From: an uncultured Acetobacteroides sp. | Lineage (GTDB): Bacteria > Bacteroidota > Bacteroidia > Bacteroidales > ZOR0009 | Assembly: GCA_964292015.1 (NCBI GenBank) | Contig: CAXYUU010000001.1 | Coordinates: 1-38,791 of the forward strand | Direction: 5' to 3' | DNA length: 38,791 nucleotides | In this document: piece after piece, positions 10,699-28,256 of the stretch | How the letters are laid out: every line of letters starts with the position of its first letter | How positions within the stretch are numbered: the stretch's first letter is position 1 | Notes under the pieces: generated by a model | What the model was told of the DNA's origin: nothing | Database searches by the model: none | What the model saw: the letters and a program-made list of their open reading frames with translations, nothing else | Program-made: the position numbers and the translations under genes

Positions 10699-10730
10699 AA
10701 AAAAGGCCACCCAATTTGGGTGGCCTTTTT
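10699..10730. terminator. Bidirectional intrinsic terminator between gcvH and the convergent lanthipeptide cluster
   Basis: AAAAAAGGCCACCCAA-T-TTGGGTGGCCTTTTT is a perfect stem with A and T tracts on either side. Confidence 0.9.
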
Positions 10731-10847
10731 GCGTTTGGGCAATTCCTAAAACCCAATGGGAATATGGTGGTGCCAAAGCCCTTAAGGCAACGACTTAGTA
10801 CTGGGATGTGTCTTAACGTTTTGCATCTAAATGACTATTTTCAGGAG

Positions 10848-11609
10848 TTACACTTTCTTTTTTAGTAGGAGTAGGTATCCTCCAGTAGAAAACAGTATAA
10901 AATAGGCCGTATTGATATAAAAAATACGATTTAAGACCACTGTCGAGTTTAGGTAGAAATCGCGAAAAGAAGTTGAAATATTGCAGAATGGAATTAGGTA
11001 GCTGTATTTCCAATCTGCCACTATAGAACCAAAGACTATCATAAAACAGGCAAAGGTAATTGGTACGATAAAGTTATCCCATCTTAAACTTAGAAGAAGC
11101 TGTACCGACATAATGGTTACAAGAGTACCGAATGTTCGTACAAAAAATGCAACTATACTAAGCGAGATATCAAAATCTTGAAATCCTAAGTGTGGATACA
11201 TAATACTTAGCAAATTACCACCCAGAAGAAGTAATGAACACGCTACAATTAACGAGCACATAATCCAAAATATCAAAATAAGAATCTTAACTAGGTAGAA
11301 GTAATACTTGCTATATGGCAATGTAAATAGTTGCCTAAACCCATTGCACCGATGTTCTATATTGCATATCGAAAAGCAAATAATAGCAACAAATAGAGGG
11401 TAGAGTAATTGGTAAAAACCGAATATTTTTGAGCTGTAGTACTGCCAATAATTAATACCCTCTTCGTAGTTGATATCATTTAGTTCACTGGTAAAGGACA
11501 TAAAAACGATTAAGGTTACTAGTGCGGGTAAAGATAAAGAAATCGTAAAATTCCAATTACGTCTCGTTTTAAATATCTCGGATGATAAAACGTTATAAAA
11601 ATCGTTCAT
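10848..11609 (-). CDS. ABC-2-type permease, LanE/LanG-like (putative peptide immunity/efflux)
   Basis: 253 aa with ~6 TM segments. Contains SEIFKTRR, EHRCNGFRQLFTLP and LIPF. Its start overlaps the ATPase stop (ATGA at 11606-11609). Confidence 0.75.
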   Translation of the reverse strand: MNDFYNVLSSEIFKTRRNWNFTISLSLPALVTLIVFMSFTSELNDINYEEGINYWQYYSSKIFGFYQLLYPLFVAIICFSICNIEHRCNGFRQLFTLPYSKYYFYLVKILILIFWIMCSLIVACSLLLLGGNLLSIMYPHLGFQDFDISLSIVAFFVRTFGTLVTIMSVQLLLSLRWDNFIVPITFACFMIVFGSIVADWKYSYLIPFCNISTSFRDFYLNSTVVLNRIFYINTAYFILFSTGGYLLLLKKKV

Positions 11610-12508
11610 AATACAACTTGATTTAATTCAACAAAAATCTCTTCTAAATTTGTCGATGATGTGTTAATTGCATAAATTTCTATCTGGTTATTAAATAGCA
11701 AGCTAATTATTTGGTTGAACTCAGAGTCATTGTATACTTCAACCTTCAATTCCCCATTAATCGTTGATTTTACATGGTACAATGTGGATAATAGCGTGAA
11801 TGACCTGTCATTATTACTGGTTCTAACGAATACGCTTTTACTAACAGTTGACAGCAACTTCGACATCTCACCCTGATATATCAAGCCCCCTTGTTTGATA
11901 ATTCCGATATGGGTGCATAGCCTCTCGATTTCGCTCAAGATATGGCTTGACATAAATATGGTCACCCCTTCGCGCCATATTGTCAGCAGGAGCTTACGCA
12001 TTTCTACAACCCCATTTGGATCTAATCCATTAATGGGTTCGTCGAGTATCAAGAGCCTTGGCTTATGGAAGATTACCAGCCCGATTCCTAGCCGCTGCTT
12101 CATTCCTGTTGATAAATGCTTCACTTTTTTATGTCGATGCTCCCAAAGTCCGACATTCATAAGTACTTGGGTAATCCTTTCTTCGCCCATGCCATGAAGG
12201 TAATCGGCATACTTTAAACTCTCGTAAGCAGTTAAGTGAGGGTAGAGCGTTGGAGTCTCAATCAAATTCCCAATTTGTGAAAGTATCTCATTTCTATTAT
12301 GGTCGTAATCTTTATCAAATACTACTATCGAACCAGAATTGCATGGATGTAAACCTAGGAGTATTTTAATTGTTGTTGATTTACCGGCTCCGTTCTCACC
12401 AAGAAAGCCGTAAATGGAATTCTCCGGTACAATCAGACTTAAATTATCGATAACTTTACGGCTACCATAGCTGAAGTTCAACTTCTGAGTTCGTATAATT
12501 TCTTTCAT
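11606..12508 (-). CDS. ABC ATP-binding protein, LanF/BcrA-like
   Basis: Walker A GENGAGKST, signature LSTGMKQRLG, Walker B LILDEPINGLDP, H-loop SSHILSE. LIETP occupies the Q-loop position (an E-loop, as in LanF/BcrA). Confidence 0.85.
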   Translation of the reverse strand: MKEIIRTQKLNFSYGSRKVIDNLSLIVPENSIYGFLGENGAGKSTTIKILLGLHPCNSGSIVVFDKDYDHNRNEILSQIGNLIETPTLYPHLTAYESLKYADYLHGMGEERITQVLMNVGLWEHRHKKVKHLSTGMKQRLGIGLVIFHKPRLLILDEPINGLDPNGVVEMRKLLLTIWREGVTIFMSSHILSEIERLCTHIGIIKQGGLIYQGEMSKLLSTVSKSVFVRTSNNDRSFTLLSTLYHVKSTINGELKVEVYNDSEFNQIISLLFNNQIEIYAINTSSTNLEEIFVELNQVVL

Positions 12509-12512
12509 ATAA

Positions 12513-13799
12513 CTACTGATTTTCTTTTATGTCGGACATCCTATCGATATAAAAAATGCCATCTGTAATATTACACCAGCGCGCATTCATACTTTGACTA
12601 TTATTGCAATTCATATTAACCCTACTAAACATAAATGTGGAATAACGTATGGAGCTAAAATTCAGAAAAAGGTAGGGTTGTTTGAGCTTATGTAGTAAAA
12701 ATTCAACCGTTTTATTGTTGTATACTTCATCAGAATTACCTACCGATCTGGTGTTGGAAAAAGATGTGAAGTTTATGGCATAGCATTGTTTGCCATAAGA
12801 CTTTTTAATATACTCGCCCATCGATGTAAAACCAACCGGATGCGTGTAACTTCTATTATCGTAGCCTATATGCATGTTTGCTGCCCATATAATTATCTTT
12901 CGTCCTTTAAATCTATTCTCTTTTAGCCAGGTAAAGTTGGATGCCATAGCTGAATCTCTAACCTGAAATCGTTTAAGTGAGCCATAGTCGTACTTCCACG
13001 AATAGGTGTAAAGAGCATGTAGATTCGAAAAAAAACGAAGATATAGCATGTCGTTTTTATTTTGTGACTCTCTTTTTTTTAAGTAGTGGCAAATACCTTC
13101 GATATCAGAAAGTACAGAGTCTTTAAACGTTTTTTTCAACGTGTAAAATATGTGCGGCAGGGGGAATTCAGAATAGTTTGGTTTAACTTTAAAAAACGAG
13201 GGAAAGTTTTGTTTGTTAATTACGCGATGATTAGCAAGATAGGATGATAGCAATGAATCTCTCACAATATTCTTTACTTGACCACTAAACTGCACATCGA
13301 ACCCAGCAACAGATATTTCCTTAGTTGTATTAATATTTTTAAGAAGGTAACTTAGTAAATTCTTATTTTCGCTATTGTTTTGCCAGAATCGCCATAGTGC
13401 TGATGAGAATATAGAATCATTTTTCGCCGTATCTCGCTTTGCTTTCTGCCAAAACAACTCGGTATCATAAAGACCAGCTTCATACATCAGCACATCGAAA
13501 CCAAGTTCTTGGTGTAAAAATTTTACAAGCCTACTTTTTGCTAAAAAAGTGATACCATCAGTATGCATAGCTTCGCCGAGTAGTACAATTTGCTTTTCTT
13601 TTAAAACTTCTTTTAAAAAAAGCAAATCGGAGAAATTCGTGTCTTGTGGCGAAATACTTTTAATATGCTGCACATCCCGTCTTAACGAAGACACCTTTTG
13701 ATCCTTTTCACTAGCATTTATCCTTGTATGAGTTGAATACACCAAACTTGTGATTAGTAGGATTATAGTAAAAAGAAATATGAAAAAATAGTTTTTCAT
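12513..13799 (-). CDS. Exported erythromycin esterase (EreA/B-ChaN superfamily) family protein
   Basis: Hydrophobic N-terminus. Motifs IVLLGEAMHTDG, LHQELGFDVLMYEAG, GFDVQ, RDSAMASN, KIIIWAANMH, SMGEYI and DGIFYID. Confidence 0.8.
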   Translation of the reverse strand: MKNYFFIFLFTIILLITSLVYSTHTRINASEKDQKVSSLRRDVQHIKSISPQDTNFSDLLFLKEVLKEKQIVLLGEAMHTDGITFLAKSRLVKFLHQELGFDVLMYEAGLYDTELFWQKAKRDTAKNDSIFSSALWRFWQNNSENKNLLSYLLKNINTTKEISVAGFDVQFSGQVKNIVRDSLLSSYLANHRVINKQNFPSFFKVKPNYSEFPLPHIFYTLKKTFKDSVLSDIEGICHYLKKRESQNKNDMLYLRFFSNLHALYTYSWKYDYGSLKRFQVRDSAMASNFTWLKENRFKGRKIIIWAANMHIGYDNRSYTHPVGFTSMGEYIKKSYGKQCYAINFTSFSNTRSVGNSDEVYNNKTVEFLLHKLKQPYLFLNFSSIRYSTFMFSRVNMNCNNSQSMNARWCNITDGIFYIDRMSDIKENQ

Positions 13800-13808
13800 T
13801 ACGTCAGT

Positions 13809-14681
13809 TTAGGCTTTTATCTTACTTCGTGCCATTACAGAAGAGTAATGCTTATAAAGTAGATTATATAATACGAGTTCATGAGTACGCTGATTGGATA
13901 TAAACAACCTGTTGCAATGCATATGAATAAAATTAGAAACTAAGTCGTTTTTTGAAATAGATGAATTGTGAATTTCTAATATTTCAATAATTGCAACAGA
14001 AACAACGGTAATAGAATTTTCAAAATCATCTAACAAATTATAAATAGTAATATACTCTTGATTTCCATTCTTTCTTTCAAAAAAGTTTCGGATATTAAGT
14101 CTGTTATCGCTATACTTCTTGTCTAATTGTAACTTTAAACCTTTATTCAATCCAAACTCCTTGCCAAAAGAAACACTTAGTTTTTGCAGTAAATAAATTT
14201 TTTCTGACAATTCAAACTTAAACGCATTGAGTATTTTGTCTATTGCACATAAAGAATAAAGCCAACGGACTGTCTCATCTTCATTTTCATTAATAATGTG
14301 TAATAATCTTAAAGTGTAAATACTATCAATTTTAAAGAATTGTTCCGATAACTCCATCGTATTTTCACCATAACGTTCAATTTCTCTCTTATAAGTATCT
14401 AGTTGAATTTTCCAAACTAATTTTAAATCAACAAAAACATTAGTTAATGAATAAAAGTAAAATAGTATGTCATGAAATTTATTTGGATTATCAACTTTAA
14501 TTCTAATTCGAAGATGATAATCTGGATCTGTATATCTTATAAAAAAAAAGTTGCATATAATATGATCTCTCTCAAATAAAGGCATAACACATTCTAGTAG
14601 TAATTTGTCAGAGAATTTTATTCCACAATATAATTTCAAATATAGCCATTCACTACCTGGTATGAAAATACGTTTCAACAT
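13809..14681 (-). CDS. lanB: Lanthipeptide dehydratase, stand-alone elimination domain (Lant_dehydr_C; split LanB part 2)
   Basis: RIFIPGSEWLYLKLY, FFFIRYTDPDYHLRIR, YKREIERYG and FIHMHCNRL. Confidence 0.9.
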   Translation of the reverse strand: MLKRIFIPGSEWLYLKLYCGIKFSDKLLLECVMPLFERDHIICNFFFIRYTDPDYHLRIRIKVDNPNKFHDILFYFYSLTNVFVDLKLVWKIQLDTYKREIERYGENTMELSEQFFKIDSIYTLRLLHIINENEDETVRWLYSLCAIDKILNAFKFELSEKIYLLQKLSVSFGKEFGLNKGLKLQLDKKYSDNRLNIRNFFERKNGNQEYITIYNLLDDFENSITVVSVAIIEILEIHNSSISKNDLVSNFIHMHCNRLFISNQRTHELVLYNLLYKHYSSVMARSKIKA

Positions 14682-14684
14682 AAA

Positions 14685-16844
14685 TCAAAAATTTTTATAA
14701 AATGAAAAAATCATCTGATTAGTATAACCGCCTTCAATTGAATTCACAACTGCTTTTTCCTTCTTAAAGAGGAATTCATTCAACTGAAACACCTGCTTGT
14801 TTTTAACTAAGGACAATAGCATTTGTATGTGATTAGTACACCTAAAGTTAATATACATCTCATTATCACCTTCAATAAACTTAACTTCAATTGGGATTTT
14901 ACGTTCTTGTCGAAATTTTTCGACGAACATAAGTAAATATTCATTACTTACATTCCTCCATTTATCTATTTCTTCCTTTCTTACCAGCCATCTTGCGGAT
15001 GATAAAATTGCATTTTTATATATTAAACGTGGTAAATAATTAAATTCATTGAATAACTCATCCCACTTAAATGACAAACTACTTCGCGTATCTTGATCCT
15101 GTAAGTCACATAAAAAATGATAAATAGGTAGTGAATTGTAATTATAGTTGTGTGCATTACTTAATCTTGGAATTATTTCTTTACTATGATATTTTGACCA
15201 AAGCATAACGCGACCATTTTTAACACCTATCAAAATATCTTGTAGTGAAATTTGATATTCTTTATCGCAGCCTGATTTAGCTAAAAATGGAATTTCATAA
15301 TTTCTTAATATTGGTCGATTTATGACATTTCCTAAACGTGATTCAGGGAGATGAATAATTTCTGCAACAATCTTCCCTTCTAATAATTCCTTCTCCTTTT
15401 TCGTTATTTCTAATACAAAGTTATTAGTTGATACATCTGTATGGCAAAATCTTGCCAAAAGATTTGCAGCACTATGATTTCCTACTGCATTTAAGGAAAA
15501 AGTATCTCCATAATGCTCGACTAGAGCTGAAAAAGTTAAAGGTAAATCATTCCAGTCCTCATCAAGATCGATAATATCTTCATCAGTTATTTCTATGTGA
15601 TCACAATTATCGGACAATGATTTATTAACTTTTTTAATAAGAAATTTAGTTTGAGTGTTCATACTTCCATTATATGTATTTTTAGTCATTGGTAAGGATA
15701 AATCATCTATTAACGGATTAACAATGCCATATCTATTATCAGAACCATAACCTATTCCTATTTCTGGATCAAGAGCAATTTGTATTGGAATAAGTTCATC
15801 TTCATATCGATCAACAAATTTCCTTTTGAATGAAACAAGGTTTGAATTAGAATTTTTAGGTGTTAATTTATTTAATAATTTAATAGTCTGCTTAAGCACA
15901 TCAATAAAATTACAATCTAATTCAGCATTAATAACAGGCTTTGCTAAATCTGTTTGAAATATGTATTTTAAATCATACAAGGTGTCTAATTTCTTTACTA
16001 TATTCAAAATTTGTGTGTAATAATTACTTGTAATTCCTAACTCTTTAGAGTCGATACTTATCAAATGTAATTGAATTTGTTTTAACGAAAAAACAGTGTC
16101 ACGACACCAATCATTATTAATTTTCGACAAACATTCTATAATTGAAGTAAGTAGATCTTTACCAGTAACATTCGGATCTAACTCACTAATTAATATTTGT
16201 GAATCAATTAATTCATTAATAAACTCCAAAGCTTCTGCATAAGTTATGTCTTCTTCAATAATGCTATTGGCTAACTCTTTTATTGTGCAACCATCCTCCG
16301 ACTTAGCAAGTATGTTTTGTAGATACACATTTGCATCAACACTCATTAAGTGATAAAGTCTTTGACTATTTTTGTATTTAAATTCAATGTAACGATATTT
16401 ATCTGCACAAGTATATATTGATGAATTTGGAAAGAATAGTAGTTCATGTTTTACATTTTTATTTTGAGTTAAATCGTATGACAGAGTGCATAGATAGGAC
16501 ATGTCTAATCTAGTATATCTTGTATAACTCGTTTGCGGAGCGAGAAATACTTTTGACTCATTACTCAACTTAAAATCCGTTGTAGAAATACCTGCAAACA
16601 ATCCAAATGGAGTACATCTTACATGCGATCTTATATCATACTTTAAAACCGAAAGCTCAATCTTATTAATTGTTTTACTATTTTTTATATCTTCATTTCT
16701 TACCTTAAGCCATTCTGAATATAATTCAGGAGAAGCTAAAAATATTGATTCTTTAAAAATGGAAGAAATTACTGGATTATCTATTTCATCAAAAGAAAAC
16801 ATGGGAGTTCGAAGAAATATTTTTGAAAAAAGCGAATAGTTCAT
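14685..16844 (-). CDS. lanB: Lanthipeptide dehydratase, glutamylation domain (Lant_dehydr_N; split LanB part 1)
   Basis: FLRTP, SIFLASPEL, RSHVRCTPFGLFAG, RLGNVINRP, IIPRLSNAHNY, YLPRL and EGDNEM. Confidence 0.92.
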   Translation of the reverse strand: MNYSLFSKIFLRTPMFSFDEIDNPVISSIFKESIFLASPELYSEWLKVRNEDIKNSKTINKIELSVLKYDIRSHVRCTPFGLFAGISTTDFKLSNESKVFLAPQTSYTRYTRLDMSYLCTLSYDLTQNKNVKHELLFFPNSSIYTCADKYRYIEFKYKNSQRLYHLMSVDANVYLQNILAKSEDGCTIKELANSIIEEDITYAEALEFINELIDSQILISELDPNVTGKDLLTSIIECLSKINNDWCRDTVFSLKQIQLHLISIDSKELGITSNYYTQILNIVKKLDTLYDLKYIFQTDLAKPVINAELDCNFIDVLKQTIKLLNKLTPKNSNSNLVSFKRKFVDRYEDELIPIQIALDPEIGIGYGSDNRYGIVNPLIDDLSLPMTKNTYNGSMNTQTKFLIKKVNKSLSDNCDHIEITDEDIIDLDEDWNDLPLTFSALVEHYGDTFSLNAVGNHSAANLLARFCHTDVSTNNFVLEITKKEKELLEGKIVAEIIHLPESRLGNVINRPILRNYEIPFLAKSGCDKEYQISLQDILIGVKNGRVMLWSKYHSKEIIPRLSNAHNYNYNSLPIYHFLCDLQDQDTRSSLSFKWDELFNEFNYLPRLIYKNAILSSARWLVRKEEIDKWRNVSNEYLLMFVEKFRQERKIPIEVKFIEGDNEMYINFRCTNHIQMLLSLVKNKQVFQLNEFLFKKEKAVVNSIEGGYTNQMIFSFYKNF

Positions 16845-16855
16845 TTGTCTTAAAT

Positions 16856-18049
16856 TTAATTAAGTAGTAAGCATTCATCCCAATTAGAAACATTATCAGA
16901 TATAGAAGAAAGTAACATGAGTCCTATCCCGGAAATTCCTTCAAGTAATGAGCTGTCATTGATATACTCATTCCCATTAATTGCTTTATAGCCAGCAAGT
17001 CCATCCTTAAACTTTGACATTTTCAAAGTTTCATTTACCCAAAAATCATGAGCAATTTTCAATTTACTATCACCTATATTACAATACATTCGATTGAAAA
17101 TATGCGCTATACCCGCTGTCCCATGACAAAGACCAGCATCAGTCACAAATTCAACATCTAAATTTGTTCTATTGGCAGCATCTAAAAGAACCCTTTTTGC
17201 AATATTTTGCCACTCTAATTTATTCAACGCTTTACCTGCTTGCCAAATTGCACATGCAATTCCTAAATCGCCATAACACCATGCAAGTCGACTTTTTTTT
17301 ATAGTAATTTCACTTTCTATGGAATAACTAGGAAAATGTGATCCATATATATTAAAATCAATATTTTGAGTCGTAATATAATTAACAACACCCTCAATTA
17401 AAAATTCAACCTTTTTCTTTTCATTACTTTTGCATATGTTTATTATTTTAGTTAACAATACAAGTATACTAGACATACCATGGGACATTGAAATGTTGAA
17501 AATGTTTTTTTGCTTTGTAATATCATACGACATCCATTTTGTTATATGATACTCGCCATATGATTCATTAATTGATGACTCACTTAACCAGTCTATTAAT
17601 TCACTAATTATTTGTGCATACTTACTATTTTTAGTATTATTTGCTTTAAATATAAAGTAGAACGAAATACCCAAAGCCCCATGTAAAAAATCATAATGAT
17701 TTAATTTGATTTGATTATTTAATTCAATTAATAAATAATTATCAATTTCGTCATAGTTAATATCGTCAATAATTCCCTGCTTCTCAAGATATGAAAAAAA
17801 CCAACCAACACCAGATATTCCTGTACAGAACGTGGGAAATGCATCTGTATTTTTAAGCAATTCAATAGTGCAATTAATTAGATTTCTAGACGCTATAATA
17901 TATTTTTTATCATTGCTATATTTAGCATATTCAATCAGAAACATCGCACTCTCAGAAGTCCCTGAATGTAGTCCATAGTGTGGTATAAGTTGATATTCAC
18001 GAGAAAGGATCAATGCAATCGCATCAATTTTTGTTTTGTAATCCATCAA
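16856..18049 (-). CDS. lanC: Lanthionine cyclase LanC
   Basis: YDFLHGALG, SMSHG (catalytic His), RLAWCYGDLG and GLCHGTAG (Zn ligands Cys, Cys-His), and SLLEGISGIG. Confidence 0.93.
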   Translation of the reverse strand: MMDYKTKIDAIALILSREYQLIPHYGLHSGTSESAMFLIEYAKYSNDKKYIIASRNLINCTIELLKNTDAFPTFCTGISGVGWFFSYLEKQGIIDDINYDEIDNYLLIELNNQIKLNHYDFLHGALGISFYFIFKANNTKNSKYAQIISELIDWLSESSINESYGEYHITKWMSYDITKQKNIFNISMSHGMSSILVLLTKIINICKSNEKKKVEFLIEGVVNYITTQNIDFNIYGSHFPSYSIESEITIKKSRLAWCYGDLGIACAIWQAGKALNKLEWQNIAKRVLLDAANRTNLDVEFVTDAGLCHGTAGIAHIFNRMYCNIGDSKLKIAHDFWVNETLKMSKFKDGLAGYKAINGNEYINDSSLLEGISGIGLMLLSSISDNVSNWDECLLLN

Positions 18050-18080
18050 ATTATTAATAACTTAAATTTTAATATTCAAA

Positions 18081-18140
18081 TATTGTCCGATTAGAAGAAT
18101 AACTATAATAATTTATAGAAATATCTTAAATCGGACAATA
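18081..18140 (-). terminator. Long stem-loop between precursor gene and lanC (attenuator or mRNA stabiliser)
   Basis: Perfect 12-bp arms TATTGTCCGATT (18081-18092) and AATCGGACAATA (18129-18140), with an inner CTATAA/TTATAG pair. Confidence 0.7.
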
Positions 18141-18166
18141 CATTTCAGTGACATTAAGAAAATGAA

Positions 18167-18406
18167 CTATTCCACAGATTCTAATTCTGTCGATGTACAA
18201 AATGCTCGTGACCCACACGAAATAGTTCCACAATCTCGAGTACAATCAGCTTGTGTACAATTAAGCCAAGTTTTGGCAGTACCACAGCCATCAGTACAGC
18301 CAGCACTCCACCCACCACCTTGAATACCGTTCATTTCATCCTTATTAAGACGAGCAATACTCTCTTTATTAAGAGATAGTTTGTTTTTCAACTTAATCTT
18401 TTCCAT
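18167..18406 (-). CDS. lanA: Class I lanthipeptide precursor (Bacteroidota LxLxKxxIxxL leader, double-glycine cleavage site)
   Basis: Leader ...KLSLNKESIARLNKDEMNGIQGG. Core GWSAGCTDGCGTAKTWLNCTQADCTRDCGTISCGSRAFCTSTELESVE has 7 Cys and 13 Ser/Thr. Lies directly upstream of lanC. Confidence 0.93.
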   Translation of the reverse strand: MEKIKLKNKLSLNKESIARLNKDEMNGIQGGGWSAGCTDGCGTAKTWLNCTQADCTRDCGTISCGSRAFCTSTELESVE

Positions 18407-18420
18407 TATAACGTTTTTTT

Positions 18421-18483
18421 TACTACCTACTCATACCCTTTTCGGCATCCGGGGCAGCAAGGTTAATGGCCATCTTGCCTGCT
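18421..18483 (-). ncRNA. Candidate structured RNA in the precursor 5' UTR
   Basis: Hairpin GCAAG/CUUGC, then stem UGCC/GGUA with GAA opposite AGUA (loop E/bulged-G signature). The loop GGGUA is complementary to upstream UGCCC. Confidence 0.35.
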
Positions 18484-18490
18484 ACGAATG

Positions 18491-18527
18491 CTAATATAGT
18501 TGGGAAGCAGTCCAGAATCTTGTACTG
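18491..18527 (-). promoter_or_regulatory. Probable precursor promoter with palindromic operator, embedded in the 3' end of the HTH gene
   Basis: TATATTAG (a -7 variant, 18498-18491, containing the HTH stop codon). Imperfect palindrome CAGTACA-AGATTC-TGGACTG (18527-18508) sits at about the -33 position. Confidence 0.45.
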
Positions 18528-18820
18528 GGGCAACTATTTCTAGCTCCTCCAATAAGTTTCTTTAGGTCGTTAACCAGTAGGTAATTATCCGACTCCCGTT
18601 CTACTGCAAAAAGAATCTTTATCCCCTTTTTATAGTAGTAGGTATGCTTTTTTGAATCGTACTCAATTTCGGCACCAATATTTTTTAGCTCTTCGAAGAG
18701 GTTGTAGAGCGTACTGCGGGAAATACCTATTTTATGGGCCAGTATTTTTGAATCTCCGGTACATTCCTGATGTAGCTCGCGGTCTAGCTCCGCTAATTTT
18801 ACCATCTCTTTTATTGCCAT
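18491..18820 (-). CDS. Small winged-HTH protein with C-terminal double-glycine-leader-like motif
   Basis: HTH segment TGDSKILAHKIGISRSTLYNLFEELKNIGAEIEY and wing YDSKKHTYYY. Tail is LLVNDLKKLIGG-ARNSCPSTRFWTASQLY. Starts 6 nt after the hlyD stop. Confidence 0.8.
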   Translation of the reverse strand: MAIKEMVKLAELDRELHQECTGDSKILAHKIGISRSTLYNLFEELKNIGAEIEYDSKKHTYYYKKGIKILFAVERESDNYLLVNDLKKLIGGARNSCPSTRFWTASQLY

Positions 18821-18825
18821 GGCAG

Positions 18826-20151
18826 TTAGTTTTTTTGTTGCGATATCATATACTTAAGGGGTGCCCATATTCGGGCTAGGATGCTTAGCTCGTCGGTACT
18901 GATTTCGGCAGTACCTGTCAGCTCTCCTCTTAGATGTAGCGGTTTCTTGTAGGTTGTTATTAGGTTTTGGGGTATGGATATGGTTGCCGAATAGCTGCTG
19001 TCGCCGGGAGCTAGCGATATCTTGAGAACTTTTCCTTTTAGCGTACCAAACTCCTGCTTAGCATATCCGTTGAGGGTAATGTTTACGCTCTGCCCTTCGG
19101 CTATCTTACCCATGCTTGCGCGATTAAGCGATGCATTTCCAACTATTTTGCCCTTATTCCTAGGGATGATGGCAAATAGCGTTTCGCCGGCTCGCACCTC
19201 CTGGTTTACGCTCCACACCTTTAGGTACGTTAGCATGCCTTCGCGCTTGGCCTTTAGCACATACTTTTCGTCCCATTGCGCGAGCGAGCTTTTTAGCTGG
19301 TTGTACGAGGCCAACAGGTTGTCGACTAGCTGCTGCTGCTTGCTACCTGCCTCCATTCGGAGCTCGGTAAGGCTTTGCGATAGCTTGGCCAGCTCTATTT
19401 CGGCATTGGTGGCCGATATGCCTGTTTGTGCAACGCTACTTCGCTTCGAGAGCATGGCCGATTCGGTTTTTTCGTAGTCGGCAGGGGCAATTACCTTTTG
19501 CGCGAGCAGTAGCGAATCGCGCCGCAGCTGCTTTAGGGTAAGATGGTAGTCCTGTTGGGTGATTGCCTGCTGGTTGGTGAGCTTACTTTGGTACTTATGG
19601 TAGCCACTTATCTCGGCTATCAGCGCCTGCTCCTTTCGGGGATAGTACTGCTGCCGAACAAAGAGCTTATACTGGCTTAAGTTTTTCAGCAGCTCGTTAT
19701 ACGAGCTTTGTACATCGCCTAGGGATAGGTTTTCGGGAAAGCTTATGGCGGCAAGCCTATCGGCTAGGGCGGCATTATCGCCATTACCGGGGCAAAGACG
19801 GGTGAGGCGTTCCATATCGCTATAGCTTGCCGAGTTTTGCATCACCGCTACCAGCTGGTTGGCCACCACCTGCATCTTATCCTTTACCAGAATGGCCATT
19901 GGCTTACCCGAGACTCGGGCTATGAGCATTTCGGGTGGTGCTTCGGTGGTAATGGTTATGGGTGCGGGAATTATATCGGGATACTTTACAAATGCGCTGC
20001 CAACAACAACCATTACAACGATGGCTCCTACTACGGTTATTCCGTATCGGATGATCTGCTTGGGAGGTGTTCCCAAAATCTCCGCCATTTCGTCGGATCG
20101 TACAACGAGGTTCTTTTTAGGTTTTATGTCCTTACTGCTAGCTTCTTCCAT
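18826..20151 (-). CDS. HlyD-family membrane fusion protein
   Basis: RSDEMAEILGTPP, a single TM helix, a long coiled coil, then VRAGETLFAIIP, GQSVNITL and FGTLKGKV. Confidence 0.9.
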   Translation of the reverse strand: MEEASSKDIKPKKNLVVRSDEMAEILGTPPKQIIRYGITVVGAIVVMVVVGSAFVKYPDIIPAPITITTEAPPEMLIARVSGKPMAILVKDKMQVVANQLVAVMQNSASYSDMERLTRLCPGNGDNAALADRLAAISFPENLSLGDVQSSYNELLKNLSQYKLFVRQQYYPRKEQALIAEISGYHKYQSKLTNQQAITQQDYHLTLKQLRRDSLLLAQKVIAPADYEKTESAMLSKRSSVAQTGISATNAEIELAKLSQSLTELRMEAGSKQQQLVDNLLASYNQLKSSLAQWDEKYVLKAKREGMLTYLKVWSVNQEVRAGETLFAIIPRNKGKIVGNASLNRASMGKIAEGQSVNITLNGYAKQEFGTLKGKVLKISLAPGDSSYSATISIPQNLITTYKKPLHLRGELTGTAEISTDELSILARIWAPLKYMISQQKN

Positions 20152-20192
20152 ATTTATACGGTTAACCTATTTACTTACTATGAAATTCAATA

Positions 20193-20276
20193 CATAGGGT
20201 TTCACCCTATGCCAAGGTCTGTCGCTTTATGTCAATGGGCTTTACCCATCTCTATCTTATATCGCCCCTTCGGGGC
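20193..20276. repeat. Cluster of short palindromes (REP-like) between exporter and hlyD
   Basis: CATAGGGT-TTC-ACCCTATG, ATGGG-CTTTA-CCCAT and GCCCC-TTC-GGGGC. Confidence 0.55.
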
Positions 20277-20391
20277 TATTCGATTACTTTTAAAACACGT
20301 TCGTCTAACTTCTACAATAGCTTCTTTTCTGCTTGTTGTTTACTACCAATGTAAAATCTGTTCAATCAGTAAAATCGGTGTTCTAACCTCT

Positions 20392-22593
20392 TTAATTGCC
20401 CAGCTCCAGCTGATTCTTTACCAGCTCGTAGTAGCCCACCTTTCTGTCGACCAGCTCGCGGTGTGTTCCTGTTTCGGTTATTCGTCCTTTGTCGAGTACC
20501 ACTATTTGATCGGCATTTTTTACGGTGCTTAGCCTATGGGCTACCACCACTACGGTTCGTCCCTTAAAGAAATCGCCGAGGTTGGCCATTATTGCCTTTT
20601 CGTTATTGGCATCTAGCGCGTTGGTGGCCTCGTCGAAGAAGATGTAGTCGGGGTTTTTGTACACCGCGCGGGCAATTAGCAGGCGCTGCCGTTGTCCTTG
20701 GCTGAGCCCATGCCCATCGCTACCTATCTTGGTGTTGAGTCCTAGCGGTAGCGATTCGATAAATTCGAGGATGCAGGCTACCGATGCGGCATGGATCACC
20801 CTTTCGCGGTCTACAATTTCGTCGGCGGGGGCAATGTTGCGGGCAATGGTATCGGAAAAGATAAATCCATCCTGCATCACAATGCCGCAGCGCTTGCGCC
20901 ACTCGCCTATACTGTAGCGTTCGAGTGGATTACCGCCAATTCGTACCTCGCCTTTGTTGGGGGGATAAAATCCGAGCAGCAGCTTAAGGAGTGTTGTCTT
21001 GCCGCTACCGCTCATGCCCACTATGGCGGTGGTTTTTCCGGCAGGTATATCTAACGAAAGGCTTTCCAATACCAGATCGGACTCGGGGCCATCGTAGCTA
21101 AACGATAGGTTTTTGATTGCTATCTCGGAGCTGGGTGGAATATCGGTACGGTAGTAGCCATCTTCCTTCTCCTCGTTATCGCGTAGGTGTACCTCGCCCA
21201 ACCTTTCAATGCTTAGCTTGGCATCTTGGGTGGCATTTAGAAAGGATATCAGCTGGTCGATGGGGCTATTCATTTGCCCGATGATATACTGCGCGGCTAG
21301 CATCATTCCTAGCGTCATGCTTCCGTTAATTACGGCGCTGGCGGCAAATACCGATATCAGGGCGTTCTTGCTTTCGTTGATGAGCACCGCACCCGACTGC
21401 TGGTACTGGTTAAGCGCCAGCCCCTTTATGCTTACCTTAAATATCTTTGCCTGTATGCGCTCCCACTCCCAACGTTTTTGCTGCTCGCAACCGTTCAGCT
21501 TTATTTCGGGCATGCCCTGTATGAGCTGGATGAGGTTACTTTGGTTAGCCGACATCTGTGCAAAGCGCTTGTGATCGAGCTCTGCCCTTCGCTTTAGGAA
21601 TACCCACACCCATGCACAGTAGATACCGCTACCCAAAAGGAATACGGCAAATATGGCCAGGTTGTAGTAGGCGAGTACCGCCCCAAATATGATGAGGTTG
21701 AACACCGCAAAGGCAACGCTGAGCGTTGTTCCGGTTAAAAAGGTTTCGATACGGTTGTGGTCGCCAATTCGCTGGATAAGATCGCCCACCATTTTGGTGT
21801 CGAAGTAGCGCATGGGGAGCTTCATGAGCTTTATTAGGAAGTCGGATATTAGCGATATGTTGATTCGTGCCCCGATATGGAGCAGTATCCATCCGCGTAT
21901 AAACTCCACGCTTACCTTTCCAAGAGTTAGCGCCAGCTGCGCGATAAGTATGAGGTAGATAAAGCTGATTTTTTGGTTGCCAATACCGTAGTCGACCAAG
22001 CTTTGCGTAAGAAACGGGAAGATAAGCTGCAGCAAGCTACCCACCAACAGCCCAACAAAGAGCTGAACCAGCAGCTTGCGGTAGGGGCGGAGGTAGCTGA
22101 ACAGGTAGGCGAGACGTGTTTTGTCGAGTTTCTCATCTTCCTGACTATAAAAATCGGGGGTTGGCTCCAGTAGTAGGGCTATCCCCACATCTTTACCCTC
22201 CATGCTATCGGATATCCAGCAGCGAAGGAACTCTTCCTTGTTGTACGTTACCATTCCACCACCTGGATCGGCAATGGATACCGTGGTTTTGCCCCGTTTG
22301 GTTTTAATCCGGTATACTACTATAAAGTGATTCTGATTCCAGTGTATAATGGCGGGTAGGGGAGCCTCGTTGGCAAGCTGTTCGAAGGTGGCCTTAACCG
22401 CTATGGTTCGAAAGCCGATACTTTCGGCTGCCTTGCTGATGCCAAATAGCGAAACACCCTCGCGCGATAGGTACGAGCTGTCGCGTAAGCTCTGGATCGA
22501 GAAGCTTTTTCCGTGGTGCTTGGCCACCATGCGAAGGCAGGTTGGGCCGCAGTCCATGGCATCGTGCTGGTTGTAATGGGTAAATTTGGACAT
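20392..22593 (-). CDS. lanT: Peptidase-containing ABC transporter (C39 peptidase + TMD + NBD; LanT/PCAT)
   Basis: QHDAMDCGPTC (catalytic Cys), HWNQNHFIVV (His), IADP (Asp). Walker A GMSGSGKTT, LSQGQRQR, FFDEATNALD, VAHRLST. Confidence 0.95.
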   Translation of the reverse strand: MSKFTHYNQHDAMDCGPTCLRMVAKHHGKSFSIQSLRDSSYLSREGVSLFGISKAAESIGFRTIAVKATFEQLANEAPLPAIIHWNQNHFIVVYRIKTKRGKTTVSIADPGGGMVTYNKEEFLRCWISDSMEGKDVGIALLLEPTPDFYSQEDEKLDKTRLAYLFSYLRPYRKLLVQLFVGLLVGSLLQLIFPFLTQSLVDYGIGNQKISFIYLILIAQLALTLGKVSVEFIRGWILLHIGARINISLISDFLIKLMKLPMRYFDTKMVGDLIQRIGDHNRIETFLTGTTLSVAFAVFNLIIFGAVLAYYNLAIFAVFLLGSGIYCAWVWVFLKRRAELDHKRFAQMSANQSNLIQLIQGMPEIKLNGCEQQKRWEWERIQAKIFKVSIKGLALNQYQQSGAVLINESKNALISVFAASAVINGSMTLGMMLAAQYIIGQMNSPIDQLISFLNATQDAKLSIERLGEVHLRDNEEKEDGYYRTDIPPSSEIAIKNLSFSYDGPESDLVLESLSLDIPAGKTTAIVGMSGSGKTTLLKLLLGFYPPNKGEVRIGGNPLERYSIGEWRKRCGIVMQDGFIFSDTIARNIAPADEIVDRERVIHAASVACILEFIESLPLGLNTKIGSDGHGLSQGQRQRLLIARAVYKNPDYIFFDEATNALDANNEKAIMANLGDFFKGRTVVVVAHRLSTVKNADQIVVLDKGRITETGTHRELVDRKVGYYELVKNQLELGN

Positions 22594-23248: not shown

Positions 23249-23398
23249 CTACAGTTCCCTTTTTTGCTGAAATTTAGTTGAGTTTGTGCACTGTTTAGTT
23301 GAGTTTGTGCACTGTTTCGTTGAGTTTGTGCACCGTTTCGTTGAGTTTGTGCGCTGTTTAGTCGAGTTTATGCACTTGTTTTGCTTTTTTTTTACCAT
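23249..23398 (-). CDS. Possible 49-aa heptad-repeat micro-ORF (not in ORF track)
   Basis: Hand translation gives MVKKKQNKCINSTKQRTNSTKRCTNSTKQCTNSTKQCTNSTKFQQKREL*. ATG at 23398, TAG at 23251-23249. Confidence 0.25.
   Translation of the reverse strand: MVKKKQNKCINSTKQRTNSTKRCTNSTKQCTNSTKQCTNSTKFQQKREL
23273..23377. repeat. Tandem repeat, 5 x 21 bp
   Basis: Consensus TTTMGTTGAGTTTGTGCACTG. Units start at 23273, 23294, 23315, 23336 and 23357. There are no spacers. Confidence 0.95.
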
Positions 23399-23977: not shown

Positions 23978-24934
23978 ATGAAAAAGTTCAGCACTGATAC
24001 TACGAAGGCAATGCATGCACGATGCCTTTTGGTGGGTACATCGCCCGATACGGCGAAGATACCCGAGGTTAAGGTTATTTCCGGTAAGATTACCATTTTG
24101 CTCGAGAACAGAGAGGACACTGGGGTAACCCTTAAATCGTGTAAGGTGCTTATGACAAAAAGTACCAAGCAGGTTAATGCGTTATTCGACCAAACCGTGA
24201 AGCTTACCGTTAGGGGATTGCTAATGTTGGAATCGCTAAAAACGCCCGATGATTTAGAATTGAAGAAGCTGCGCGTTACCGGCGATCTGAATAAGTATAA
24301 GGTGAAGGAGCTTCTCGACTACTCGCTAATCATTAGCAACTTCATGCAGGATAAAAAGTCGGTACTTATAGCCCATGGCTATACCGAGCCACAGGTTGAT
24401 GAGATCGATGCGTGCCGCGTGCTACTTTTGAAGGCGATAGCCGATCAGGCAAGCCTGCATGCTCGGCAGGAGCAGCTTCGCACTGAGCGCAGCCAGTGTG
24501 AGGAGCAGGTAGACCACCATTTTTGCAAGCTCAACGATATTATTGCGGTAAACAAGGTGCTGATTCCGGATCTTTACCGCGATTACCACGCCATAAAGGT
24601 AAATGCAAGCAGAAGGCTGCCTAATTCGGTACAGGTAAAGCTTACCTCGGGAGGGCTTCCGGTAGCTAACGCTATGGTACGCCTGTACGGCACTGCCGCT
24701 CCGTATGCAAACAAGGTTGTTACGCTGAAAAAAGATAGGCAGGACGCGCAAGCTGGCGAGGTGCTGGTGTCTAAAAAGCTCTCGAAGGACAAGGGGGTAA
24801 TCAACATTAAGCACCTGAAGCCGGGTACCTACCGAATGATGGTGTCAAAAGTTGGGTTTGCCGATCAGGAGATTACCGTTTACGTTAATCCGAAGGAGGT
24901 AACGCGCATTACCGTAGTGCTTAAGCCGCTATAG
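23978..24934 (+). CDS. Hypothetical protein with helical N-terminal region and C-terminal carboxypeptidase-regulatory/PEGA-like beta-sandwich
   Basis: 318-aa ORF with AT-rich leader. C-terminal PVANAMVRL...LKPGTYRMMVSKVGFADQEITVYV. No signal peptide is visible. Confidence 0.65.
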   Translation: MKKFSTDTTKAMHARCLLVGTSPDTAKIPEVKVISGKITILLENREDTGVTLKSCKVLMTKSTKQVNALFDQTVKLTVRGLLMLESLKTPDDLELKKLRVTGDLNKYKVKELLDYSLIISNFMQDKKSVLIAHGYTEPQVDEIDACRVLLLKAIADQASLHARQEQLRTERSQCEEQVDHHFCKLNDIIAVNKVLIPDLYRDYHAIKVNASRRLPNSVQVKLTSGGLPVANAMVRLYGTAAPYANKVVTLKKDRQDAQAGEVLVSKKLSKDKGVINIKHLKPGTYRMMVSKVGFADQEITVYVNPKEVTRITVVLKPL

Positions 24935-25469: not shown

Positions 25470-27830
25470 TTATACCGCTTCGTGCTCGGTTCGTGTAATG
25501 ATTTCGTTTTGTAGGTCGATACCCAGGTCGTTAAAGTAGTCGCTAAAGCCGGCAACCCGGACAATGAGGTCGCGGTACAGCTCGGGTTTTTGCTGCGCCT
25601 TGCGTAGGGTGTCGGCATTTACGACGTTAAACTGGATATGGTGGCCGTCGATCTTAAAGTAGCTGCGCACTAGGCTCGATACTCGGCGTATGGCCTCGTC
25701 GCCATTAAAGAACTGGGGGGCAAACTTCATGTTTAGTAGCGTACCGCCAGTTCGTAGGTGGTCTATCTTGGCAGCCGACTTGATAACCGCCGTTGGCCCG
25801 TGGGTGTCGCATCCCTGCGAGGGCGAAATTCCCTCCGATAGGGGGGTGGTAGCTTTTCGTCCATCGGGTAGTGCGCCGGTAACCTTGCCAAAGTAGATGT
25901 GACAGGTGGTGGGTAGCAGGTTTACGCGGTGTACGCCTCCTCGGGCGTTGGGTTTACCGTCAACGGCATGGAAGTAGAGCTCAAACACCTCGTTTAAACA
26001 GCGGTCGGCGAGGTCGTCGTCGTTGCCGTACTTGGGCGTGCTAAAGATGAGCTCGTTTCGAATGGCCTCGTAGCCTACAAAGTTGGCATTTATGGCCTCG
26101 AGCATGGTGGCCATGGTGATATCCTGCTTTTCGAACACGTGGTGCTTTAGCGAAGCAAGGCAATCGGTAATGGTACCAAGGCCAACTCCCTGTACGTAGG
26201 TGGTGTTGTAGCGTGCCCCGCCAGCGTTATAGTCTACGCCCGAGGTGATGCAGTCGTCGATAAGGATGGAGAGGAAGGGAACGGGCATATGCTGGGCAAA
26301 TATCTCCTCGTTCTTTACGTTACCGGCAATTTTTATGCGCATAAAGTGGTTTACCTGCTCTTCGAAGGCTCCAAGAAGTTTTTCGTAGGAGGTAAATGTG
26401 CTGGCATTGCCTGTTTTTATTCCCAGCTGTCTGCCGGTTCGTGGATCTACACCATCATTTAGCGTTAGCTCCAGAATTTTGGGCAGGTTAAAGTATCCGG
26501 TAAGCCAGTAGGCCTCGGTACCGAATGCACCTACCTCTACACATCCGCTTGCACCGCCACGTCGGGCATCGATAATGGTCTTGCCCTGGCGTAGCATCTC
26601 CTGAACCATGGCGTCGGTGTTGAATATAGACGGTTGTCCAAATCCGGTTTTGCTTATCTTGATGGTTCTGTCGATAAAGCTGTCGGGGTTCTTCTTCGAT
26701 AGCTGTACCATGGAGCTGGGCTGTAGCAACCTCATCTCCTCGATCACATCCAGAATGAGGAATGATACCTCGTTTACGCCATCGCTGCCGTCATCTTTTA
26801 CTCCGCCAACATTTATTAGGCAGAAATCGGTGTAGGTGCTGCTCTCCTGGGCGGTAATGCCCACCTTAGGTGGCGATGGATGGTTGTTGAACTTTACCCA
26901 AAAGCACTGGAGTAGCTCGCGAGCAGCTTCTTGTGTAAGCGTACCGCTTTCGATTTCGCTTTTGTAGAAGGGGTATAGGTGTTGGTCGAGTCTTCCAGGG
27001 TTAAACGCGTCCCACGGATTCAGCTCGGTTATAACGCCAAGATGGATAAACCAGTAGTACTGTAGCGCCTCGTGGAAGGTGGTGGGTTTATTGGCCGGTA
27101 CGTTTCGGCAAACCGTTGCCATCTTTAGCAGCTCGGCTTTTCGAGTCGTATTAGGCTCTACACTGGCGAGCTCCTCCAGCTTTTGGGCGTGCCTTTGCGC
27201 AAAGGTTATGATGGCCGTTGCCGTTATCTGCATGGCAATAAGCTCCTCTATCTTGTTGGAGTTATCGCCATCGTTTTTCTGATTCTTTTCAATAGACTTA
27301 TCAATTTGGTGGATGAAGTCGTTCATCCCCATCTGGTAAATCTTACCGCCGCAAACGGTATGTCCTGGAGCGCGCTGCTCCATAAACTCGGTAAAGATGC
27401 CTGCCTCGAATGCCTGCTTCCACTCGCTGGTCATAGCCGACATGATACGTTCGCGGTTATTGTTGCCCGTCCAGTATGGCGTGATGGTATTCCCGAAGTC
27501 GGTTCGTGTTTGCTCGTCCACCTTAAACGAAACATGCTTACGGCTGTTGAGTACTTCCAGATCTTCGGGCGTATGCACGCAAATTTCGGGATAGGTTGGT
27601 GTTGCCTTGGGTTTTGGCCCTCGTTCGCCAACGATTAGCTCGCCTTGGCCAATGTATATCTTCTTACGGGTAAGGATGTGCTCAAATGCCTTGGCACGCT
27701 TAACGGGTACCGATAGGTTGGTGTTTTCTATGCTTTTGTAGAACTCGGTAATCAGGAGTCCTCTTTCCGACGAAAGGGTATTAACCGCATTAAGGGTCTC
27801 CTCTCGTAACTTTTTTACTCGTTCGTTCAT
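25470..27830 (-). CDS. hypD: Glycyl radical enzyme, trans-4-hydroxy-L-proline dehydratase
   Basis: HypD-type motifs PTYPEIC, FTEFMEQRAPGHTVCG, WDAF, ESSTYTDF, SGCVE, LTGY, LPTTCHIYFG and the glycyl radical loop LIVRVAGFS. Start placed at the ATG of MNERVKKL (27830) rather than the TTG at 27869. Confidence 0.88.
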   Translation of the reverse strand: MNERVKKLREETLNAVNTLSSERGLLITEFYKSIENTNLSVPVKRAKAFEHILTRKKIYIGQGELIVGERGPKPKATPTYPEICVHTPEDLEVLNSRKHVSFKVDEQTRTDFGNTITPYWTGNNNRERIMSAMTSEWKQAFEAGIFTEFMEQRAPGHTVCGGKIYQMGMNDFIHQIDKSIEKNQKNDGDNSNKIEELIAMQITATAIITFAQRHAQKLEELASVEPNTTRKAELLKMATVCRNVPANKPTTFHEALQYYWFIHLGVITELNPWDAFNPGRLDQHLYPFYKSEIESGTLTQEAARELLQCFWVKFNNHPSPPKVGITAQESSTYTDFCLINVGGVKDDGSDGVNEVSFLILDVIEEMRLLQPSSMVQLSKKNPDSFIDRTIKISKTGFGQPSIFNTDAMVQEMLRQGKTIIDARRGGASGCVEVGAFGTEAYWLTGYFNLPKILELTLNDGVDPRTGRQLGIKTGNASTFTSYEKLLGAFEEQVNHFMRIKIAGNVKNEEIFAQHMPVPFLSILIDDCITSGVDYNAGGARYNTTYVQGVGLGTITDCLASLKHHVFEKQDITMATMLEAINANFVGYEAIRNELIFSTPKYGNDDDLADRCLNEVFELYFHAVDGKPNARGGVHRVNLLPTTCHIYFGKVTGALPDGRKATTPLSEGISPSQGCDTHGPTAVIKSAAKIDHLRTGGTLLNMKFAPQFFNGDEAIRRVSSLVRSYFKIDGHHIQFNVVNADTLRKAQQKPELYRDLIVRVAGFSDYFNDLGIDLQNEIITRTEHEAV

Positions 27831-27937
27831 GGTAGTAATGGTTATGTTGTTAGCATTAGATTTGGACAAAGCTGGTATTAAGTATCACGACACACTATTT
27901 ATGCCCCCCCCGCCCTACGGGCACCCCTCCTTGATAA

Positions 27938-28146
27938 GGCAATGTCATAAAGTTAAGCACGAAGCTCTATCAGCGTTGTCATTGACTTCGTCGAGCTCGC
28001 GTTGCTCGGTTCCGGGCTTGTCCCGGAATCTAAATATGAATCCAATAGATTCTAAAAAAAGGCCCTTCGGGCAATTCATTAGATCCCGTGACAAGCACGG
28101 GATGACACTCCGAGGAAAGTTTTTTCCTTAACTTAATAAGATTGCC
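27938..28146. mobile_element. 209-bp non-autonomous MITE with IS1595-like ends
   Basis: TIRs GGCAATGTCATAAAGTTAAG (27938-27957) and CTTAACTTAATAAGATTGCC (28127-28146), 17/20 match. Direct repeat TTGATAA on both flanks. Confidence 0.7.
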
Positions 28147-28193
28147 TTGATAAGGAGGGGAGTCCCGCTCCGATCGAGGTTCTGCCTATTCTC

Positions 28194-28245
28194 TAACTTC
28201 CTTTAACTTCTTTAACTTCTTTAACTTCAACCTTCTTTAACTTCT
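28194..28245. repeat. Degenerate ~9-bp tandem repeat (TTAACTTCT)n
   Basis: About five imperfect TAACTTC-containing units just downstream of the activase stop. Confidence 0.6.
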
Positions 28246-28256
28246 CAATTTCATTC

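Follow-up and report, generated by a model that had tools for sequence, protein, structure and literature searches.

Class I lanthipeptide clusters of the Bacteroidota (the pinensin type; Walker et al., 2020, PMC7268733, in the parts compared here) combine a precursor with an LxLxKx5L/Gly-Gly leader (NF038153), a LanB split over two genes, a LanC cyclase and a C39 peptidase-ATP-binding cassette (ABC) exporter (PCAT). The same set is encoded on the minus strand at positions 10848..22593 of contig CAXYUU010000001.1 (assembly GCA_964292015.1), a stretch of 38,791 nucleotides from an uncultured Acetobacteroides sp. of the Bacteroidales, called the window below. In the window the lan genes are followed by genes for an erythromycin esterase-family (Ere) protein, an ABC ATPase and a permease (the trio). 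The reading favoured here, at a probability of roughly 0.55, is that the lanABC cassette and the trio occupy a variable slot and make a probably antibacterial lanthipeptide, with pump and hydrolase likely protecting the producer.

For the studied organisms Chitinophaga pinensis, Pedobacter lusitanus, Runella limosa and Chryseobacterium OV715, the cores listed in the same parts of Walker et al. lack the GCTDGC frame of the window core. By eye, none of their 12 precursor rows has the five-Cys frame, and the window core is unrelated to pinensin, PedA, ChmA and RuiA. No pump-hydrolase trio and no slot marked by a helix-turn-helix (HTH) gene and a dyad occurs in those parts. For complete dehydration in E. 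coli, ChmA (Chryseobacterium OV715) and RuiA (Runella limosa) depend on a Bacteroidota GluRS/tRNA-Glu pair (Lee et al., 2023, PMC9993889). Both are also Bacteroidota class I precursors; each has three rings, whereas the window core, unrelated to either, predicts five to seven. Which of the 12 rows is the experimentally studied peptide is partly our assumption.

Two described systems, NSR with NsrFP and LanI with LanFEG, likewise encode a membrane-anchored protein together with an ABC transporter (PMC4828448, in the part used here). According to that part, NSR cleaves the lantibiotic and carries a helix at its N-terminus; it is an S41 serine peptidase found with a BceAB-type transporter in Gram-positive non-producers. 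In the window the partner of the 300-aa ATPase and the single permease is instead an Ere/Tiki-fold protein, encoded in a predicted Gram-negative producer and, elsewhere, in apparent non-producers. PF05139 was the only domain detected in the Ere protein, and no S41 peptidase domain was found.

A study of 1136 genomes states that LanB is absent from the Bacteroidales (PMC10352776); the window adds to the cases against this, and the Walker table already lists Bacteroidales precursors. The cluster type is already known, and the core family is catalogued but unstudied. The trio and the HTH-dyad slot appear undescribed: neither was found in the searchable literature, outside which most subscription journals lie. 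That literature also held no published link of the erythromycin esterase family with lanthipeptide clusters, an earlier mention in the Walker supplementary tables being possible.

Gene content of the locus

The locus comprised ten co-oriented open reading frames (ORFs), whose coordinates and order (PCAT, HlyD, HTH, LanA, LanC, LanB(N), LanB(C), Ere, ABC ATPase, permease) were verified by an ORF and translation check of the window. From PCAT to permease the intergenic gaps were 240, 5, 84, 117, 11, 3, 9, 4, and -4 nt. PCAT (733 aa; 20392..22593) contained PF03412, PF00664, and PF00005, with C15/H89 and the Walker A/B and signature motifs present. It was followed by an HlyD adaptor (HlyD_3; 441 aa; 18826..20151) and a small Bacteroidota HTH protein (109 aa; 18491..18820) with a weak HTH_11 match (20.3 bits, below the cut-off of 25), the predicted activator of the downstream peptide gene.

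LanA (79 aa; 18167..18406) consisted of a 31-aa Gly-Gly leader and a predicted 48-aa core. The glutamylation half of LanB, LanB(N) (Lant_dehydr_N; 719 aa; 14685..16844), scored 430.6 bits against PF04738, and its Y69, R72, R76, and T78 aligned with NisB Y80, R83, R87, and T89, which we take to be catalytic. The elimination half, LanB(C) (Lant_dehydr_C; 290 aa; 13809..14681), scored 211.7 bits against PF14028 and carried the motifs RYTDP..H.R.R, ERYG, and HMHCNRL; both halves were aligned to NisB and MibB. In LanC (LANC_like; 397 aa; 16856..18049), residues H190, R254, C258, C308, and H309 were invariant in 5/5 aligned sequences, so that the Cys-Cys-His zinc ligands and the catalytic His are intact by comparison with the NisC active site (as given in part of PMC7296275). 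Downstream lay the Ere/Tiki-fold hydrolase (Erythro_esteras; 428 aa; 12513..13799), a LanF-like ABC ATPase with a C-terminal extension (ABC_tran; 300 aa; 11606..12508), and a single LanE/G-like permease with at least five hydrophobic segments (ABC2_membrane_4; 253 aa; 10848..11609). Elsewhere, the host genome had 33 TolC-family matches and a tRNA-Glu.

A two-way terminator hairpin common to the convergent gcvH gene (10700..10730; 14-bp stem, A and T runs on both sides) lay 117 nt beyond the permease stop. It folded at -23.7 kcal/mol on either strand, a value equalled by 0/200 shuffles. A simple sigma-70/terminator scan of the window gave chance-level counts only, and the hairpin was not among its output.

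With precursor and leader, two-gene LanB, LanC, and C39 exporter, the locus has the components of a Bacteroidota split-LanB class I cluster, its rings being predicted. An earlier note on this DNA had described ten co-oriented genes in this order, with intact C39, LanC, and LanB motifs and an end at the gcvH terminator; ORFs, family scans, alignments, and the hairpin fold bear this out. Family scores and motifs likewise support its claim of a complete Bacteroidota-type class I cluster with split LanB, Gly-Gly leader, and PCAT. No near-identical cluster turned up, since the nearest LanC among 7995 candidates scored was 48% identical.

The GCTDGC core family

LanA scored 42.8 bits against NF038153 (cut-off 22), the L1a leader ending in Gly-Gly. 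The predicted core contained 7 Cys and 13 Ser/Thr and had a net charge of -3. Its computed monoisotopic mass is 4981.05 Da unmodified; five dehydrations would lower this to 4891.0 Da, and seven, with every Cys in a ring, to 4855.0 Da. A word-index search with LanA returned one relative; a profile search was then used and gave 312 matches at E 0.001. Of 151 sequences examined, 61 matched the strict core motif S/T-x-G-C-T-D-G-C...N-C-T-x3-C-T-x2-C and 76 shared the five-Cys frame (C.DGC plus Cys spacing only). Counted back from each of the five Cys in turn, Ser/Thr occupied the position 3, 3, 4, 4, and 3 residues away in 75, 76, 73, 76, and 76 of the 76 members, and all five offsets occurred together in 72/76 members against 24/15200 shuffles. 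This conservation predicts five sequential rings; other, overlapping topologies are compatible with it. Acidic cores prevailed (56/76 members negative), with an invariant Asp and conserved Asn/Asp.

Relatives of the core are present in the precursor table of Walker et al. (2020; PMC7268733, in part): Chryseobacterium, Kordia, Prevotella intermedia, Porphyromonas macacae, and an Alistipes sp. The core is therefore not an orphan, a possibility that was rejected given these relatives and the 76/151 proteins sharing the frame. The earlier note had found no lanthipeptide that the core resembles; this stands insofar as no experimentally studied relative was found, but the core belongs to a large catalogued family. 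In full-text literature, with most subscription journals outside the search, no paper joined the CTDGC motif with a lanthipeptide. The family is strongly conserved and, as far as the searchable literature goes, unstudied. The first two rings, S-x-G-C/T-D-G-C, recall the lipid II-binding SxxxCTPGC (T-P-G-C) motif of nisin (PMC7268733, in part), with a shorter ring A and Asp in place of Pro; this likeness is treated as a lead only.

A degenerate DNA-pattern search, which detects only TGT-ACN starts with Asn before the third Cys, gave 33 loci, of which 10 were chance matches in other phyla and 23, 20 of them distinct, encoded a LanA of the family. At 6 of the 20 distinct loci lanB and lanC adjoined. 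One sibling cluster (L112) lay in a genome of the same genus (G001), its LanA 51% identical to that of the window; several low-GC ORFs, glycosyltransferase-like by eye, precede it (L112:6890-14405).

In Kordia and other Flavobacteriaceae (L173, L177, L178, L181, L183, L186, L189, L191, L195, L196, L198), one to four GCTDGC precursors were encoded and neither lanB nor lanC was found in the flanks examined. Modification in trans is suggested, since 4/4 such precursor-only genomes tested had a LanC match elsewhere (36-41%).

The Ere protein

PF05139 scored over its cut-off. Scores against the EreA/B/D models were 37.4 (EreB, cut-off 750), 25.3, and 21.4 bits with cut-offs of 750-800, and annotation as an EreA/B-type macrolide esterase gene was rejected on these scores, far under the family cut-offs. 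The protein belonged to a tight group of 14 Ere relatives at 47-55% identity. Residues E76, H79, R90, E107, and H310 were invariant in 20/20 aligned sequences, E76, H79, E107, and H310 forming a 2His/2Glu site. A single N-terminal hydrophobic helix was present in 5/5 Ere proteins tested.

The structure model (predicted local distance difference test, pLDDT, 87.8) matched Bcr135/136 and EreC, then ChaN, HopBA1, and RRSP. EreC (6xcq) and Bacillus cereus Bcr135/Bcr136 (2rad, 3b55, 2qgm) have the same fold (TM 0.67-0.73; Z 32-38) and the 2His/2Glu site; the window protein differs from them in its sequence (13-19% identity), its N-terminal membrane segment, and its constant link with an ABC pair. 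The His-Glu site of the Tiki superfamily cuts esters and peptides (PMC6254334, in the part used here). By modelled fold and active site the protein is an Ere/Tiki superfamily hydrolase, with peptide-bond cleavage as a candidate activity.

More distant Ere genes were found inside four other Bacteroidota lan clusters (the set L052, L060, L106, L157, L147) and behind one LanA-like leader match. They come from separate tree branches, which suggests repeated recruitment into lan clusters. A 710-aa Ere-ATPase ORF (L037) was not accepted as a genuine fusion; a small deletion spanning the boundary of the two genes seems to have produced it.

Distribution and phylogeny of the trio

Among 77 metagenome loci with an Ere relative, the trio was present in 6, none of which showed a lan gene, and 3 others lay within lan clusters. 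Twenty loci from 26 other matching genomes of the order included 1 trio and 1 locus in a lan cluster. Within the core family, eight clusters were available (the window, L112, and six others). The ABC-permease pair was present in 5 of these and the full trio in 3: the window, L167, and Chitinophaga agrisoli (L188).

Eleven Ere proteins, all encoded beside the ABC pair, formed one branch (support 98/97 with 36 rows; Shimodaira-Hasegawa (SH) support 99 with 91 rows), and lan clusters accounted for 4 of the 11. In the ATPase tree, one 13-row branch (97/99) united the sequences from all 6 lan clusters, 6 stand-alone trios, and a single lone pair; 0 of the 21 ATPase rows outside this branch came from lan clusters. 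In one genome that is 100% complete (G147), the trio occurred along with a core remnant lacking its leader, and no LanC match was found. The trio lineage thus recurs in clusters of this peptide family and also without lan genes.

The permease family was found in 20/400 other genomes of a phylum-wide sample, in which 20 of 21 places were examined. Four of these 20 loci had an Ere trio of another lineage. Elsewhere a permease of this family was accompanied by an S41 peptidase, by a LytS/LytTR pair, or by a hydrolase of the beta-lactamase family, which in one case was fused to it. Fusion partners of the permease (L289:7880-10096, L291:7993-10257, L290:7882-12447) were a thioredoxin-like domain (two genomes) and the beta-lactamase-family hydrolase (one genome); in L290 an S41 peptidase gene precedes the hydrolase-fused permease, filling the gene position of Ere.

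Mosaic structure and the variable slot

The G+C content of third codon positions (GC3) divided the locus into three modules. PCAT and HlyD had values of 0.62 and 0.57, like the flanking host genes; lanA, lanC, and the lanB halves ranged from 0.20 to 0.25 (LanC 0.22, LanB(N) 0.20, LanB(C) 0.22); and the trio ranged from 0.34 to 0.41 (Ere 0.34, ATPase 0.41, permease 0.34). Genome GC was 45.8%. The locus is a mosaic of PCAT-HlyD-HTH, host-like in GC and shared with relatives, the low-GC LanA-LanC-LanB, and Ere-ABC-permease. In G001, orthologs of PCAT (88%), HlyD (68%), and HTH (59%) occurred in the same order and were followed by other cargo, namely S41 peptidases and an array of small Gly-Gly-leader, Cys-rich ORFs; no lan gene was found within that 20 kb. 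Beyond gcvH, the DNA of all three same-genus genomes was unlike that of the window.

Contigs of related strains or species from 7 of 17 listed sequencing runs (7 studies) were aligned to the window at 85% likeness, and missing coverage over the cassette was counted only where contigs join or run on. In two of the seven runs (X3 and X5, two studies), 10749 was joined to 18436 across 420 other letters, replacing 10750-18435. Contigs of 15.0 and 10.1 kb (X7 and X9) matched the HTH side and diverged into other DNA at 18424-18425. In X2 and X4, an element at 18424-18529 was present twice, 407 letters apart. The slot edges are the downstream end of this element and, on the far side, ~10749. Because contigs of related strains join across or depart at these edges, the 7.7-kb stretch from lanA to permease is cargo, and the slot that it fills, downstream of a resident PCAT-HlyD-HTH unit (the hub), is variable.

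The hub itself decays in some strains. In one same-genus genome (G003, L113:2113-4962), the first 55-60 PCAT residues are fused to an unrelated 949-aa ORF directly after gcvH, and in runs X2 and X4 a joint 18821-22417 omits most of PCAT and HlyD. Between PCAT and HlyD (20354-20386), many contigs from other runs end loosely on both sides, as at a dispersed repeat. Upstream of PCAT (23273-23381), a tandem repeat of 21 bp x 5.1 copies is multi-copy in related strains.

The HTH gene, dyad, and promoter unit

A dyad GTACA-N6-TGGAC (18510..18525), the predicted HTH binding site, lay inside the last HTH codons. Eleven nt after it, overlapping the HTH stop, was a -7 box, TATATTAG (18491..18498), with 1 mismatch to TAnnTTTG, the Bacteroidota consensus (PMC7641319, in the part used here). 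Both lie on the minus strand within the repeated promoter/5'-leader element (18424..18529) before lanA, for which no notable RNA fold (z -0.89) and no Rfam match was found. The HTH protein carries a leader-like (L/I)xxIxGG motif near its C-terminus; its single-sequence structure prediction had a pLDDT of 43.8.

In G001 (L021), the 105-nt element before lanA matched five places, and the dyad GTCCA-N6-TGGAC was matched 12 times (3.2 expected), in 10 cases with 0-1 mismatch. A TAnnTTTG-like box stood exactly 11 nt past the dyad in 9/10 of these copies and in the window copy. The window dyad searched alone was at chance level (11 matches against 10.6 expected), so support rests on recurrence. HTH relatives were present in 42/301 genomes of the order. 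Dyad and -7 box were found at the 3' end of 15/28 usable HTH loci against 29/681 background windows, and a Gly-Gly-leader small ORF followed the HTH gene in 11/25 usable loci against 3/428 other genes. The exact window-type dyad was near only 1/30 HTH gene ends, arm sequence differing between lineages. The HTH protein probably activates at the dyad. Across the Bacteroidales (L219-L248 and L021:1569-17003), a small HTH gene, a dyad and -7 box at fixed spacing, and a Gly-Gly-leader peptide gene form a widespread unit, and ten dyad copies in G001 precede small Cys-rich ORFs.

The HTH gene was missing from the 7 other clusters of the peptide family, whose LanA genes also lacked the composite site; the gene is therefore assigned to the hub, which carries other cargo in relatives, and was rejected as an accessory of this peptide family. 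Several expectations of the earlier note change. It had counted the HTH gene in the accessory set of this peptide and had treated the ten genes as one cluster; the HTH gene is resident instead, and the genes form three modules of unlike base composition rather than one evolved unit. Its combination of HTH, Ere, and two-gene ABC as uncharacterised holds for the Ere/ABC/permease set, undescribed in the searchable literature, and fails for the HTH gene. Nor is the trio unique to this cluster, recurring with and without lan genes.

Neighbouring genes

At 25470-29054 lay genes for HypD, a trans-4-hydroxy-L-proline dehydratase (over cut-off), and for the enzyme that activates it; the pair adjoins gcvH in G001. 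A 318-aa protein (23978-24934) had a C-terminal carboxypeptidase-regulatory-like domain; paralogs of it (29-30%) were encoded on contig C6 and, in two genomes of the same genus, close to gcvH.

Discussion

The observed genes, motifs, mosaic, slot edges, co-occurrence, and conservation can be arranged in the following course of events. The HTH protein would bind the dyad in its own last codons, at the position of a -33 box, and activate the -7 promoter before lanA, which would drive lanA-C-B-B-ere-ABC-permease. By family knowledge, LanB(N) would glutamylate Ser/Thr with Glu-tRNA, LanB(C) would eliminate, and the Zn-dependent LanC would close the rings: S3-C6, T7-C10, T15-C19, T20-C24, and T25-C28 family-wide (core numbering), and perhaps T30-C33 and S35-C39. 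The product, 48 residues long, would carry five to seven thioether rings; PCAT would cut after Gly30-Gly31 and export the peptide via HlyD and a TolC encoded elsewhere. Should peptide re-enter, the ATPase, acting with a permease dimer, may clear it from the inner membrane, and the Ere-fold enzyme may hydrolyse it on the periplasmic side, in a role like that of NSR beside its transporter. Stand-alone copies of the trio would protect non-producers. A lanthipeptide is very probably the product. That the trio protects against it stands at slightly better than even odds, and that the Ere protein cuts it is a tentative proposal, well short of even.

Several observations weigh against this reading. 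In the flanks examined, three of the eight family clusters (L170, L190, L192) had neither pump nor Ere, and Ere is dispensable, since 5/8 lack it; L188 and L060 stand on long branches of the Ere tree. The pump was missed by the LanFEG immunity models (ATPase, TIGR03740, 230.8 < 309.75; permease, TIGR03733, 44.9 < 117.2), and the window has a single permease rather than a LanE and LanG pair; a LanFEG-like working of the pump stands, although these scores lie under the cut-offs. The slot joints were called from sides of 60 and 46 letters at 85% likeness, and the composite dyad/-7 pattern was defined after the data were seen. The core is anionic, unlike nisin-type antibiotics. A producer destroying its own product would be unusual; the known producer proteins, NisI among them, bind without cutting (PMC4828448, in part). 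Counts of the trio are biased, since the tree loci were gathered with the window's own Ere, LanA, and permease as queries. The five closest trios (48-53% identical) had no lan gene in the flanks examined, and lan genes stood beside the permease at 0/20 loci of the phylum-wide sample, so that the trio may serve against other compounds.

These last two counts suit a general envelope detoxification module for other peptides or esters, which would have travelled in along with the cassette and not be specifically linked to this peptide, the lanthipeptide pathway itself being real. So do the 7/11 rows of the Ere branch that are stand-alone trios, the GC3 of the trio (0.34-0.41 against 0.20-0.25 for lanABC), and the pairing of Ere with the pump family in at least two further lineages without lan genes. 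Yet the same Ere and ATPase branches recur in lan clusters of at least three Bacteroidota families with differing gene orders, and lanB(C), ere, ABC, and permease are tightly spaced (9, 4, -4 nt); a module of this general kind is judged unlikely. The Ere protein might instead be a maturation enzyme that trims an N-terminal extension or C-terminal tail of the exported peptide, leaving immunity to the ABC pair alone. Three of the four other lan clusters with distant Ere genes lack this ABC pair (L052, L106, L157), family members vary both in the residues between Gly-Gly and the ring motif and in their tails, and for an Ere homolog in graspetide loci either peptide modification or resistance has been suggested as the role (PMC8939145, in the part used here). 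Trimming is nonetheless improbable: the closest relatives of Ere occur without precursor or lan enzyme, the window LanA has just two residues before the first ring, and most family clusters lack Ere.

Slightly less credit still is given to a signal, metal-binding, or surface peptide that is no antibiotic, with pump and hydrolase handling its turnover. The anionic core with its invariant Asp and conserved Asn/Asp would fit such a peptide, as would 13 Kordia-like loci with precursors, often in arrays, and no lan enzyme or pump in the flanks examined. The LanFE-like pump in 5/8 clusters and the stand-alone copies in apparent non-producers fit antagonism, ring B (T-D-G-C) resembles the nisin lipid II-binding T-P-G-C, and the cargo varies between strains, which we take to be typical of bacteriocins. 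An ordinary macrolide esterase hitchhiking in the cassette would account for the PF05139 match and for an Ere fold with catalytic residues; with the EreB score so far under its cut-off, 13-14% identity to EreC, a closer likeness to Bcr135/136, and a conserved N-terminal hydrophobic helix in the relatives tested, it is very improbable. We therefore retain the reading of a protected producer. A bolder form of it seems doubtful to us, namely that the Ere/Tiki enzyme is a lanthipeptide-destroying protease with a one-permease pump, giving self-protection and stand-alone resistance to five-ring anionic Bacteroidota lantibiotics, that the S-x-G-C-T-D-G-C rings are perhaps an acidic counterpart of the nisin lipid II cage, and that the cassette is swapped into an HTH-activated slot feeding many peptides to one exporter.

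The locus offers a complete, intact route into a large conserved core family, with a specific ring prediction, and the unit of HTH gene, dyad, -7 box, and Gly-Gly-leader gene could serve as a tool for activating silent peptide clusters. Few Gram-negative lanthipeptides have been studied, and self-protection was not found described for them in the searchable literature. Most members of the erythromycin-esterase family lack a known substrate, and for one branch of it the trio provides a natural role that can be tested; if the proposal is true, a pump with a membrane-anchored hydrolase would be a new kind of lantibiotic self-defence.

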